Assembly: GCA_965219445.1 (NCBI GenBank)
Contig: CBDCNQ010000002.1
Location: 32,001-96,000 of the forward strand
Length of the DNA: 64,000 bases
Source of the DNA: Longimicrobiales bacterium
GTDB lineage: Bacteria > Gemmatimonadota > Gemmatimonadetes > Longimicrobiales > Gaopeijiaceae
Reading direction: 5' to 3'
Below are positions 1-4,498 of the stretch, one piece after another. Position 1 is the stretch's first letter; every line of letters begins with the position of its first letter. The position numbers and the translations under genes were made by a program. A model generated the notes under the pieces. That model saw only the letters and a list, made by a program, of their open reading frames with translations. It did not search any database and had not been told where the DNA came from.

Positions 1-699
1 GACGCGGTTAGCGATCGCGATTGGGCCCTCGGGCTCGCCTTCGTGGCCGCTCGCCTCGGGATCCACTTATCGCGGTTGGCGGAGGATCTGGTGCTATTCG
101 GATCCAGGGAATTCGGGTTCGTCCGCTTGTCTGACGGGTTCAGCACGGGATCCAGCCTGATGCCGCAGAAACGGAATCCGGACGTGGCGGAGCTCGTGCG
201 GGGGAAATCAGGTCGGCTGACGGGCAATCTCGTGTCGCTCCTCACGGTGTTGAAGGGACTTCCCACCGGTTACAACCGTGACCTCCAGGAAGACAAAGGA
301 ACGCTCTTCGATTCCGTGGACACGCTCAGCATGGTGTTGCCCGCGATCGAAGGGGCCGTCCGCGGCGCGGAATTTCAAACGGACCGCATCGAGGCCGCGC
401 TCGACCCGCAACTTCTCGCCACGGATTTGGCCGATTATCTGGTCCGGGCCGGCGTACCCTTCCGGAAGGCTCACGAGGTCGTCGCCACGGTCGTGCGCGT
501 CGCGGAGAACCAGGGCGTTGCGGTGAACCAGCTTCCGCTCGAGGCGTTCCAGGAGGCACACGCGGCGTTCGGTGCCGATGTGCTCGACGTGTTCGAATGG
601 GAACGCTCGCTCGAGGCCCGGGAAGCCCCAGGAGGCACGGCCCGAAAGGCGGTTATGAAGCAGATCAAGACTGCGGAGACGTGCCTCCAGCAGCCCTAG
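1..699 (+). CDS. argH: Argininosuccinate lyase (5'-partial, runs off window start)
   Basis: Frame open from base 1 (DAVSDRDW); signature [38 protein letters not shown]. Confidence 0.96.
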
Positions 700-1732
700 A
701 GGCTGCGACGTTGAGACCCTCCAGCGCCCTCCCCGCCGCCGCCGCAAATGGTGCCAGGTCGGCCATGAGTGAGTCGAATTCTTCGAACAACAACGACTGG
801 TCCCCGTCGGATACGGCCATCTCGGGGTCGGGATGGACCTCCACGATGAGGCCATCGGCCCCCGCAGCGATGGCCGCGTAGGAAAGGGCCGGCACCAGGT
901 CTCGCCGCCCTGCGGCATGGCTGGGATCGGCCACTACGGGCAGGTGTGTTTCCTTCTTGAGCACGGGGATTGCGGCCAGATCGAACGTGTTGCGCGTCGC
1001 GTCTTCGAACGTTCGGATGCCTCGCTCACAGAGCACCACGTTCATGTTCCCTTGCTTCATGACGTACTCGGCGGCCAGGAGGAGGTCCTGGATCTTGGCC
1101 GACATGCCGCGCTTGAGAAGGATCGGCCTGTGGAGCCGTCCGACTTCCGTGAGGAGGGAGAAATTCTGCATGTTTCGGGCTCCGATCTGCAGCATGTCGG
1201 CGTACTCCGCGACAAGGTCGACCTGACGGGTATCCATGACTTCCGTCACCACCGGGAGCCCGGTCTCGGCTCGCACGTCCGCGAGCATCTTCAAGCCCTC
1301 CTCACCGAGACCGTCGAAGGCGTAGGGAGAGCTCCTCGGTTTGAACGCCCCACCGCGTAATCCGGTCGCTCCCGCCGCCTTCACGCGCCGTGCCGTATCC
1401 TGGAGCATGAGGAGGTTCTCGACGGAGCACGGTCCCGCGACGATCGAAAGGGCGTTGCCTCCTACCGTTGCGCCCCCGAGGGGAACCTCCGTGGGCTGCA
1501 TGTCGGCTTGCCGGCTCGCCAGCTTGTACGGCTTCATGACCGGGCGAACACCCTCGACACCAGGAATCGAGAGCAGGGGCACGTTGGCAAGTTGTTCCGG
1601 ATCTCCGATACAAAGCACGACCGTCCGGTGCTCGCCTCGAATGAGGTGCGTGCGAGGGCCTAGGGACTCGATTCTTTCCCGGATGTGGTCGAGTTCTTCG
1701 TCGGTCACGCCGGGGCGGGTGACAATGATCAT
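665..1732 (-). CDS. aroF: DAHP synthase, type I-beta with N-terminal regulatory domain
   Basis: Start MIIVTRPG at 1732; motifs [45 protein letters not shown]; 3' end overlaps argH by 35 bp. Confidence 0.93.
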
Positions 1733-1782: not shown

Positions 1783-1814
1783 AAAAAAGGCCCCCGACCA
1801 AGAGTCGAGAGCCT
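1783..1814 (-). terminator. Intrinsic terminator (attenuator) in the aroF leader
   Basis: Minus strand GGCTCTCGAC-TCTTG-GTCGGGGGCC-TTTTTT: 10-bp stem (two G-U pairs) followed by U6, about 50 nt upstream of the aroF start. Confidence 0.85.
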
Positions 1815-1849
1815 CGGGACGAAACGCGTTTGCGCTCAGCGCGCGCGCA

Positions 1850-1918
1850 TCAGCCGCTGGCTCCCGGAGGGGGCCACCCGGTAAAGTAGAAAGCCTGATG
1901 CTTGTGCGCGTGAATCAT
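1850..1918 (-). CDS. Aromatic-rich leader peptide MIHAHKHQAFYFTGWPPPGASG (22 aa)
   Basis: Translated by hand; F-Y-F-x-x-W cluster; lies immediately before the terminator hairpin preceding DAHP synthase. Confidence 0.8.
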   Translation of the reverse strand: MIHAHKHQAFYFTGWPPPGASG

Positions 1919-1925
1919 GGGCTAA

Positions 1926-1954
1926 AAGCTGTGCTTCCAGTGATCATGAGTCAA
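1926..1954 (-). promoter_or_regulatory. Putative sigma70 promoter for the aroF leader (possibly leaderless mRNA)
   Basis: TTGACT-17 nt-CAGCTT-7 nt-ATG of the leader peptide on the minus strand. Confidence 0.5.
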
Positions 1955-2045: not shown

Positions 2046-2984
2046 ATGTCCACGGCCGCCGTTGCTGCGGGGTCCACGGTCACGGCGAGCGTTACGCGCC
2101 CCGTCCTCGATGAACTCGATGTCCCACTCGGGAAACGCGTACGCCTTCGTAGACTGCTCTATGGACGGGGGTTGAAGAACGGAACGCTTCTCATCCTCCC
2201 GATCGACCAGGGTTTGGAGCACGGTCCGATCGATTTTTTCCCCAATCCGCCCTCCCAGGATCCGGACTATCAGTGGCGGCTGGCGTTGGAGGGCAACTAC
2301 AACGCCGTGGCGTGCCACTACGGGCTCGCCCGCAAGTACATGGCGAAGTACGCGGGGGAGGTCCCACTTCTTCTGAAGATCAACGGAAAGACCACGATAC
2401 CCTCCGATGCGGAGGCCTTTTCGTCGTTGACCGGCAGCGTTGAGGACGCAGTATCGATGGGCGCCGACGCCGTCGGGTACACCCTTTATGTCGGTTCTCC
2501 CCGGCAGGACGAGGATCTCCAACAACTCCAGCTCGTTCGTGAGGACTGCGACAAGTACAACATGCCTCTGGTGGTGTGGTCGTATCCAAGGGGTGCCGCG
2601 ATCGAGGAGAAGGGGGGACGCGACAGCCTCTATGCCGTCGACTATGCGGCCCGAGTCGCCCTCGAAATGGGTGCCGACATCGTGAAGCTGAACATTCCAA
2701 AGCACGGTCCGAAGGACGCCGATCAGCCCGGGGAATACTCCGGGATCGAGTACGACTATCGGGAGGGCGCGAGGCGGGTGGTGGAGTCCGCGGGGCGCTG
2801 TCTCGTACTCTTTTCCGGGGGAAGCAAGCTCGGCGATGACGACCTCATGACCAAAGTGCGTACGGGCCTGGAAGCCGGCGCGACAGGTCTCATCTTCGGC
2901 CGCAACATGTGGCAGCGGCCCTTCGATGAGGCGCTTGCCATCACCGAGCGAGTCCACGAGGTGATGAAGGAGTTCGGCGCCTGA
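2046..2984 (+). CDS. fbaB: Class I fructose-bisphosphate aldolase (DhnA/FbaB type)
   Basis: ILPIDQGLEHGP, WSYPRG, GADIVK Schiff-base Lys, FSGG, GLIFGRN; GGAGGAG RBS before ATG 2046. Confidence 0.9.
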   Translation: MSTAAVAAGSTVTASVTRPVLDELDVPLGKRVRLRRLLYGRGLKNGTLLILPIDQGLEHGPIDFFPNPPSQDPDYQWRLALEGNYNAVACHYGLARKYMAKYAGEVPLLLKINGKTTIPSDAEAFSSLTGSVEDAVSMGADAVGYTLYVGSPRQDEDLQQLQLVREDCDKYNMPLVVWSYPRGAAIEEKGGRDSLYAVDYAARVALEMGADIVKLNIPKHGPKDADQPGEYSGIEYDYREGARRVVESAGRCLVLFSGGSKLGDDDLMTKVRTGLEAGATGLIFGRNMWQRPFDEALAITERVHEVMKEFGA

Positions 2985-3017
2985 CGAAGCCACCGGTCCG
3001 CACTCCGGGAGGGCCAC

Positions 3018-3779
3018 GTGACGGACGCTGACTCCATGAAGAGAGCGGTGGGCACGGAAGCGGCCGAACTCGTGGAGAGCGGGATGCGTTTGGGGCTGGG
3101 CACTGGATCGACCGTGGCCCACTTGTTGACCGCTCTGGCCAATAGGCTCGACACGGGTAGGCTGGTCGATGTGGTCGGCGTACCCACGTCTCTTCGCACG
3201 GCTCACGAGGCCCGGGAACTTGGCATTCCGCTGACCTCCTTGACCGAGACTCCCGTTCTCGATTTGACGATCGATGGCGCCGATGAGGTCGATCCCGAGT
3301 TGAACCTCATCAAGGGTCTCGGGGGAGCGCTTCTCCGGGAAAAGATAGTGGCCCAGGCCTCTCGACGGTTGGCGATCATGGTCGACGACACCAAGATGGT
3401 GCCCGCACTTGGGACACGGTGCCTCGTGCCGCTCGAGGTGATACAGTTCGGATGGGAGGTCCACGGCGGGTTCGTGGAGTCGTTCGGCGCCCAACCCACG
3501 CTACGGGTGGGGCCGGACGGAGAGCCGATGGTCACGGACAATGGCAACTACATCATCGACTGCCATTTCCCGGACGGAATCGCCGACGCTGAAAACTTTG
3601 AGCTGGCCATCCGTACGAGAGCCGGAATCGTGGAATCCGGGCTCTTTCTCGGAATGGCGACCGAAGTGCTGGTGAGTGGTCCGGCTGGTGTTGAAAGGCT
3701 GACGAGGGGAGATGGTGCCGTCATGAGAGATGGCCCCGCGGAGGGAGATGGTCCCGTGACGGGAGGCCACGCCCCATGA
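3018..3779 (+). CDS. rpiA: Ribose-5-phosphate isomerase A
   Basis: GLGTGST, DGADEVD, IKGLGGALLREK, TDNGNYIID. Confidence 0.96.
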   Translation: MTDADSMKRAVGTEAAELVESGMRLGLGTGSTVAHLLTALANRLDTGRLVDVVGVPTSLRTAHEARELGIPLTSLTETPVLDLTIDGADEVDPELNLIKGLGGALLREKIVAQASRRLAIMVDDTKMVPALGTRCLVPLEVIQFGWEVHGGFVESFGAQPTLRVGPDGEPMVTDNGNYIIDCHFPDGIADAENFELAIRTRAGIVESGLFLGMATEVLVSGPAGVERLTRGDGAVMRDGPAEGDGPVTGGHAP

Positions 3780-4498
3780 CGGTTCTGATCGCTCCATCCA
3801 TTCTTTCCGCAGATTTTGGGCGTCTGGCCGAGCAGGTGTCGGAGGCGGACGAAGCCGGAGCCGACTGGATTCACGTGGACGTTATGGACGGGCACTTCGT
3901 CCCCAACATCACGATCGGACCTGCGGTGACATCGGCCGTGCGGGCAGCTACGGACCTCCCCGTCGACGTGCACCTGATGATCGAAGAGCCCGACCTGTAC
4001 CTCTCCGCCTTCGCGGATGCCGGAGCCGACTACATCACGGTTCATCAGGAGGCGTGCTCCCATCTCCACAAGACCATCGAGCGTATTCGCCAACTGGCCG
4101 TACGCCCCGGCGTGACACTGAATCCGGCTACGTCCGTCGAGACGCTGGCGGAAGTCGTACGCGAGATCGATCTCGCTCTGATCATGTCAGTAAATCCAGG
4201 GTTCGGAGGGCAGGCGTACATTCCGTCGAGTACCGAGAAGATCCGCCGGCTCCGGGCGATGCTCGACGAAAAAGGCGCGGGCGGCGCCGAGCTCGAGGTG
4301 GATGGAGGGGTGAATGTCGACACGGCGGGCACGGCGAGCCGGGCGGGGGCGTCCGTGCTCGTGGCCGGAGCGGCGGTTTTTGGCCATTCGGGCGGCATTG
4401 GGGAGGCGATCCGGTTGATCCGAAGCGCCGCCGAGGATGGAAGCGCTGCCGAAGAGAGTGGACTGGCAGAGGAGGGTGGAGCGGACGGAGTCCGGTGA
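3776..4498 (+). CDS. rpe: Ribulose-phosphate 3-epimerase
   Basis: APSILSADF, HVDVMDGHFVPN, MSVNPGFGGQ, EVDGG. Confidence 0.96.
   Translation: MTVLIAPSILSADFGRLAEQVSEADEAGADWIHVDVMDGHFVPNITIGPAVTSAVRAATDLPVDVHLMIEEPDLYLSAFADAGADYITVHQEACSHLHKTIERIRQLAVRPGVTLNPATSVETLAEVVREIDLALIMSVNPGFGGQAYIPSSTEKIRRLRAMLDEKGAGGAELEVDGGVNVDTAGTASRAGASVLVAGAAVFGHSGGIGEAIRLIRSAAEDGSAAEESGLAEEGGADGVR

Follow-up and report, generated by a model that had tools for sequence, protein, structure and literature searches.

A predicted aromatic attenuator, class-wide and probably leaderless, in front of a DAHP synthase gene in Gemmatimonadetes

The window, by which we mean the whole 64,000-nucleotide stretch of DNA analysed, carries on its minus strand an aroF gene (665..1732) whose domain matches indicate a DAHP synthase of type I-beta carrying a ferredoxin-like domain at its N-terminus: its product matches PRK08673 above cut-off as well as DAHP_synth_1 and DAHP_snth_FXD. 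The gene is monocistronic: a class I aldolase gene diverges from it on one side and argH converges on it from the other. The TTG at 1801 given as the aroF start in the ORF list was rejected, as it falls in the loop of a terminator and the HMM match begins at the ATG at 1732. The divergent cluster beside aroF (2046-4498, plus strand) comprises the class I aldolase gene, rpiA and rpe; the pentose phosphate pathway supplies erythrose 4-phosphate to DAHP synthase, and rpiA and rpe adjoin aroF. With trpB, trpE, prephenate dehydratase and prephenate dehydrogenase all encoded, the genome has the Phe, Tyr and Trp branches of the pathway. The genome holds two further I-beta paralogues of this DAHP synthase, at 80% and 50% identity and with no visible leader, and a third match at 33% is probably KDO8P synthase (the three sites being G000:C5:860079, C1:9542 and C2:425103). 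No aromatic leader with a terminator was seen in this genome before trpD, trpE, tyrA or the two aroF paralogues. In some relatives, an ORF 3′ of aroF resembles, by eye, chorismate mutase or prephenate dehydratase.

Between the divergent cluster and aroF, ORF translation gives a leader ORF of 22 codons on the minus strand (1918-1850), just as the original prediction had described it. Its further claim of codons for Phe, Tyr and Trp within six codons also holds, with F10, Y11 and F12 at 1891-1883 and W15 at 1876-1874, and every other element that it had named (a 1:2 helix, an antiterminator, a terminator with U6 and a TTGACT-17-CAGCTT promoter) is present in the sequence. Phe10-Tyr11-Phe12 are the predicted control codons, and the Trp15 codon TGG, variable in the genus comparison, also provides the first bases of strand 1 of the RNA structure. 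Length and register of the ORF are unchanged in 10 of 11 genus loci, and the leader of L004 has a 1-nt insertion 3′ of codon 15. An independent contig (run X2 record 3) matches 1708-2153 with full identity. When the 4.56-Mb genome was searched for TTG[AC][CT] followed 34-39 nt on by the ATG of a short ORF and then by a terminator, only two sites were returned, the aroF leader and a His-rich leader before hisG; the aroF leader therefore exceeds chance. Directly after the control codons, 8 of the 11 genus leaders encode Pro-Pro-Pro (1873-1865, minus strand), a run that may merely mirror the C-rich strand 1; a ribosome paused on it would cover strand 2. Most leaders end in a GCGCG-type motif (peptide ends such as ARA, ARV or VRD), and since in this genus the motif falls 3′ of the stop codon (window 1848-1839, minus strand), it is probably conserved at the RNA level.

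A 191-nt element spanning this region recurs in 10 of the other 11 genomes in the genus. For a broader comparison, 110 aroF loci were pooled, from which 11 duplicates and 4 loci with <250 nt upstream were removed to leave 95; L037, a paralogue, was left out by hand. A locus was scored as having a leader if it had an ATG ORF with an aromatic cluster and a TTG 35-39 nt upstream. The F/Y/W-rich ORF that the original prediction expected in relatives was found at 69 of the 95 loci, with at least three aromatic codons in eight in 67 of the 69, although the loci are related and such counts overstate independence. A phylum-wide draw gave 35 genomes with a match, and 20 further loci were chosen from these; the leader is present at 11 of the 13 that belong to other orders of the class, at none of three from the same family and at none of four from other classes. 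The aroF relatives with named records belong to Gemmatimonadota, the nearest being Longimicrobiales. Two records titled Gammaproteobacteria (L059 and L109) have an aroF that falls among Gemmatimonadota with similar flanks, and are probably mislabelled bins.

At the 26 of 95 loci that have no leader, several keep the promoter 55-150 nt from aroF or hold decayed remains. Presence and absence of the leader require 14 changes on a quick aroF tree, at least eight of them forced, which together with the decayed leaders suggests that attenuation may have been lost repeatedly. Leaders are decayed or deleted in L023, L049, L052, L054, L056, L076, L096 and L101, where the types of decay include loss of the start codon, a premature stop, and internal deletion sparing the promoter and part of the terminator.

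The predicted promoter consists of a -35 box TTGACT (1954-1949), invariant in 14 of 14 aligned close loci, a 17-nt spacer, and a -10 box CAGCTT of the xAxxxT type (1931-1926) that ends 7 nt before the leader ATG. A generic sigma-70 promoter scan scored no site, the TTGACT/CAGCTT pair having 7 of 12 matches. The distance from TTG to leader ATG is 35-39 nt in all 69 leader loci (35-38 nt in 68), the TTG itself being part of the leader filter, so that its presence in 69 of 69 is selected. Positions 4 and 5 of the -35 box are A in 61 and C in 60 of the 69 leaders, and the unselected bases before the leader ATG (n = 69) peak for A at -12/-11 and for T at -8/-7, which fits a -10 box whose end lies some 7 nt short of the ATG. 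A Shine-Dalgarno-like motif precedes only 6 of the 69 leader ATGs, versus 48 of the 69 aroF ATGs. Because such motifs are rare and a TTGAC box lies 35-39 nt before the ATG, leaderless translation of the ORF is likely, in agreement with the original prediction that the ATG lies at about +1; from the promoter spacing, the transcript is predicted to start at or beside the ATG.

Downstream of the promoter, the leader RNA is predicted to form the alternative helices of a classical attenuator. Strand 1, the protector (1869..1876), pairs with strand 2 in helix 1:2 (1876-1869 with 1865-1858), with 7 bp, one bulged A and a computed energy of -9.9 kcal/mol; the 14-row consensus structure contains this helix, three of whose pairs show one double change each. 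Strand 2, the antiterminator strand (1859..1866), lies within the ORF at codons 18-20 and pairs over 8 bp with the 5′ terminator arm (1866-1859 with 1813-1806), closing a domain of -33.7 kcal/mol. Nested in this 2:3 domain, 3′ of the stop codon, is an inner hairpin (1848-1824, -12.2 kcal/mol) that is part of the consensus structure and adds stability to the domain; the original prediction had not included it. The intrinsic terminator, recovered by a terminator scan and by folding, has arms at 1814-1803 and 1799-1788 around a loop, followed by U6 (1788-1783); its hairpin (1814-1788) has 12-13 bp and -18.7 kcal/mol, it is the sole terminator-like site that the scan gives in 1600-2300, and 2 of the 14 consensus rows have a C-G to U-A double change in it. 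A credible intrinsic terminator lies between leader and aroF in 62 of the 69 leader loci, and the seven leaders without one were dropped from further comparisons, leaving 62.

The antiterminator overlaps the 5′ arm of the terminator and its pairing is conserved. In the window, the 2:3 duplex is better than 200 of 200 shuffles (z -3.5), and in the 14 close loci strand 2 and strand 3 pair in 98.2% of 112 alignment cells, against 28-50% when one strand is slid along the other. The covariation that the original prediction proposed to look for does not rise above shuffles for this helix (80/500), the 14 close loci holding only one double change. Strand 2 does vary in step with the terminator arm across divergent loci, where mean duplex energy is -17.3 kcal/mol for cognate and -15.4 kcal/mol for non-cognate pairs, a modest gap, and the 2:3 duplex is better than its own shuffles at p ≤ 0.05 in only 34 of the 62 leaders.

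Stronger evidence than duplex pairing or covariation is the position of the aromatic codons. Anchored on the antiterminator strand, they pile up at codons -11 to -3 from strand 2 and vanish from codon -1 on, and the last of them ends a median of 11 nt (range 3-16) before strand 2 starts, about the distance from a ribosome's site to its front edge. We defined codons -10 to -2 as the sensing window. Its 558 codons include 82 Phe, 144 Tyr and 38 Trp, compared to 19, 31 and 11 among 991 codons elsewhere, which amounts to 14.7%, 25.8% and 6.8% within and 1.9%, 3.1% and 1.1% outside, or 47% versus 6% for the three together. All three amino acids are encoded in the sensing window of 21 of the 62 leaders, Phe and Tyr in 19, Trp and Tyr in 12, Tyr only in 7 and Phe only in 3. 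Trp thus occurs there in 33 of 62 leaders and is enriched about 6-fold at class level. Given this mixed content over 62 leaders, the combination of aromatic codons, Trp included, is a lineage-level trait, and many lineages of the class probably sense more than one aromatic amino acid.

To model the switch, the window transcript was cut before the second terminator arm and folded with the ribosome footprint forced single-stranded. With a ribosome at codons 2-14 of the window leader, the computed probability of the 2:3 helix is 0.61-1.00; at codon 15 it is 1.00 or ~0.47-0.5 according to footprint length, and from codon 16 on it drops to 0.00-0.10. Across the 62 leaders, placing the ribosome on the aromatic cluster turns the 2:3 helix on in 53 (footprint +6) or 52 (+9), and moving it 4-8 codons past the cluster turns the helix off in 61, an off state that is partly built in since a ribosome past the cluster covers strand 2; the two conditions hold together in 51 of 62. 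On this computed geometry, stalling would free the antiterminator and continued translation would block it. The mutually exclusive pairings of the original prediction are all present as helices, but in the window copy helix 1:2 alone fails to block 2:3 while a ribosome is on the leader, and the modelled switch would be mainly the ribosome covering strand 2, located inside the ORF. In three genus loci (L002, L003 and L007) helix 1:2 is stronger: there, a stall at F10 or Y11 gives no 2:3 helix, and F12, the one control codon of the three that does switch, needs the longer footprint to do so.

Folding the full leader at equilibrium yields the terminator only and was rejected as a test of the switch: on the full-length transcript the terminator wins at every ribosome position, with the 2:3 helix at ≤0.08. 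The modelled switch would therefore have to be kinetic. Superattenuation, that is termination in the absence of translation, is predicted for the window copy, where the 2:3 helix is off (0.09) with no ribosome on the leader. As a general feature it was rejected (27 of 62), since the helix forms without a ribosome in 35 of the 62 leaders. Once the ribosome has reached the stop codon, the 2:3 helix comes back in 26 of the 62.

We consider it highly likely that these features constitute a class-wide, probably leaderless, ribosome-dependent aromatic attenuator for DAHP synthase. The trpL/pheL-type attenuator proposed by the original prediction is thus supported by its conservation in relatives with the antiterminator kept. 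Transcription would begin at or beside the leader ATG. When charged Phe-tRNA, and probably Tyr-tRNA too, is low, a ribosome held at codons 10-15 would leave strand 2 (codons 18-20) available for pairing with the nascent 5′ terminator arm, RNA polymerase would read through and aroF transcription would rise. A ribosome at codon 16 or past it would cover strand 2, letting the terminator form and stopping transcription near 1783; codons 16-18, a Pro-Pro-Pro run, may keep the ribosome on strand 2. Any Trp input through Trp15 would be marginal at best.

How much weight the Trp codon deserves in the window copy bears directly on the original claim that a single leader integrates all three end products. 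At class level the Phe/Tyr/Trp mix stands, in 21 of 62 leaders, and a real, selected Trp input through W15 would also fit with W15 being the last codon that still favours 2:3 in the folding model, at the edge of the switch. In addition, neither trpD nor trpE was seen to be preceded by a Trp leader with a terminator in this genome, which would make aroF the natural site of a Trp input. In this copy, however, the Trp codon of the sensing window is not conserved: at codon 15, 4 of the 11 genus loci have Trp and the other 7 Arg, the Trp15 loci are interspersed with Arg15 relatives, and Arg is also what the three nearest leaders from the outgroup carry. Trp and Arg differ here by one C/T transition at base 1876, which is also the first paired base of helix 1:2; in the window copy the change is matched by one on the opposite strand, and contigs of near-identical strains (runs X2, X4 and X6) have the Arg-type base. 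The modelled effect of W15 falls to ~0.5 with the longer footprint, and in C. glutamicum the Tyr codon within a Phe-Tyr-Phe leader gave no Tyr response, according to PMC11802643. We therefore regard a selected Trp input in this copy as unlikely, and its Trp codon as probably a minor, recent addition. As the nine closest loci are largely unresolved on our aroF tree, which is a quick version, W15 gains cannot be counted. All 14 of the 14 aligned loci have TTT at codon 12, so that Phe12 is invariant, and L010 and L011 have Glu in place of Tyr11; Phe12 is predicted to be the main sensor in this genus, and for the window copy we predict Phe to come first, Tyr second and Trp to be marginal.

Three other readings were weighed. 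In the first, the leader reports tRNA modification or general translation speed rather than amino-acid supply. UNN codons are read by tRNAs with MiaA/MiaB modification at A37, and Pro-Pro-Pro runs could bring EF-P dependence. The codons for Phe, Tyr and Trp all start with U and Pro-Pro-Pro occurs in 8 of 11 genus leaders, and MiaA has reportedly been linked to Trp attenuation in Pseudomonas (2026, PMC13434334). Cys codons are also UNN, yet they are depleted in the sensing window (4/558 versus 28/991), Pro-Pro-Pro is not retained beyond the genus, and the target is the entry enzyme of aromatic synthesis; we find this reading very unlikely, and modification would rather be a side input to the same switch than its purpose. 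That the terminated RNA or the peptide is itself the functional product appears highly improbable. rnTrpL and peTrpL are described as acting in trans in Sinorhizobium, and Rfam gives a weak suhB/mmgR match (RF00519) over 1855-1775. At 19.9 bits (E 0.16), this match is far under the gathering threshold of 41 and depends largely on the terminator hairpin and U tail, so it was rejected, as were weak snoRNA matches below gathering level. The peptide has no conservation beyond its aromatic codons and a frameshift after codon 15 is tolerated in L004, and any role in trans would come on top of attenuation. Barely credible, finally, is a chance ORF before a constitutive terminator, the transcription of aroF starting at a different promoter: the predicted promoter does fail the generic scan and some relatives express aroF without a leader, but ORF, aromatic cluster, spacing and antiterminator are conserved class-wide, and the only two such sites in the genome each have the cognate amino acid.

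The attenuator predicted for aroF would extend ribosome-dependent attenuation to Gemmatimonadota, an abundant and barely cultured phylum. About 80 leaders with varied Phe/Tyr/Trp mixes on one RNA scaffold make up a natural series, in which the number of amino acids sensed per leader and the codon positions that count become testable. The predicted leaderless layout also bears on how ribosomes are loaded and coupled to RNA polymerase without a Shine-Dalgarno site. A more far-reaching picture, which we find tentative and somewhat doubtful, would have one ancestral leaderless attenuator in Gemmatimonadetes that truly integrates Phe, Tyr and Trp and has been retuned by swaps of aromatic codons within a ribosome-footprint window that stays fixed (with a recent regain of Trp in this copy), as part of an undescribed phylum-wide set of attenuators (aro, his, leu and tandem cys).

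Both the attenuation mechanism, which is textbook knowledge, and a Phe-Tyr-Phe leader before aroF are already known. The AroF of C. glutamicum is a type I-alpha enzyme from a different phylum, whereas the Gemmatimonadota target is of type I-beta with a ferredoxin-like domain. The aroR leader of C. glutamicum is the closest precedent, compared here by the shared Phe-Tyr-Phe and target gene only: Mentz 2013 (PMC4046766) places a Phe-Tyr-Phe leader peptide directly before the DAHP synthase gene, in an arrangement of ribosome-stalling attenuation, and PMC11802643, summarising Neshat 2014, gives induction by Phe limitation and not by Tyr limitation. Compared with aroR, Phe-responsive only by that account, the class-wide Gemmatimonadetes leaders add Trp and are richest in Tyr; the likeness is likely one of convergence. 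The enterobacterial trpL, pheL and pheM leaders share the short ORF with cognate codons, the alternative 1:2/2:3/3:4 helices and the intrinsic terminator, but the aroF leader differs from them in being predicted leaderless, in its mixed aromatic codons, in having strand 2 wholly within the ORF and in acting at the entry step of the pathway. Up to E 5, Rfam matched no known Trp or Phe leader here, and none of its families reached gathering level in 1500-2300. The uORFC-13-1 motif of Acholeplasma is a predicted Phe uORF with a terminator before aroF (PMC8632094) that differs in having an RBS, in encoding Phe only and in being confined to Acholeplasma and environmental sequences. Attenuators have also been predicted from databases before aroA-tyrA in Thermus and Vibrio (PMC1173090). 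Leaderless sensory short ORFs as such have precedents: those encoding polycysteine are established as attenuators in mycobacteria (10.1101/834739) and form the first unit of the transcript, like the ORF proposed here, although they sense Cys and act on translation through RBS sequestration, in contrast to the intrinsic terminator and aromatic codons of the aroF leader. The RBS-less ilvBNC leader reported for C. glutamicum is likewise a leaderless sensory short ORF at the head of its transcript. For Gemmatimonadota, no report of leader-peptide attenuation was found in the literature searched; subscription papers and one supplement could describe it. Lopatovskaya 2010 may cover aroA/aroF leaders in other phyla. 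The phylum is unmentioned in the main text of PMC8632094, PMC11109978, PMC2965389 and PMC4833913 and in the readable supplements of PMC8632094 and PMC4833913.

Further short ORFs that resemble leaders were observed elsewhere in the genome. The His-rich leader before hisG (G000:C5:821987, plus strand; L150) has 25 codons, a terminator and an antiterminator; its ATG follows TTGACC by 37 nt, which predicts a leaderless start. A Leu/Ile-rich leader of 37 codons (G000:C5:692657, plus strand; L151) has a Shine-Dalgarno-like motif and a terminator, and the gene after it resembles leuA by eye. In front of the prephenate dehydratase gene, a 10-codon ORF with Phe and Trp (G000:C3 ~258790-258825, plus strand; L116) begins 35 nt past TTGACA and overlaps the first codon of that gene with its stop (ATGA), making it a possible leaderless, translationally coupled uORF. 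Two tandem Cys-rich leader ORFs lie upstream of a PAPS reductase/sulfite reductase operon (G000:C5:874850-875480, minus strand), each followed by a terminator; a third hairpin plus U tract lies between the two. Apparently a pair of tandem cysteine attenuators, they are arguably more unusual than the aroF leader. The region is matched in 8 of 11 other genomes of the genus (loci L149 and L152-L161), with both Cys leaders adjacent in L153, L154 and L155.
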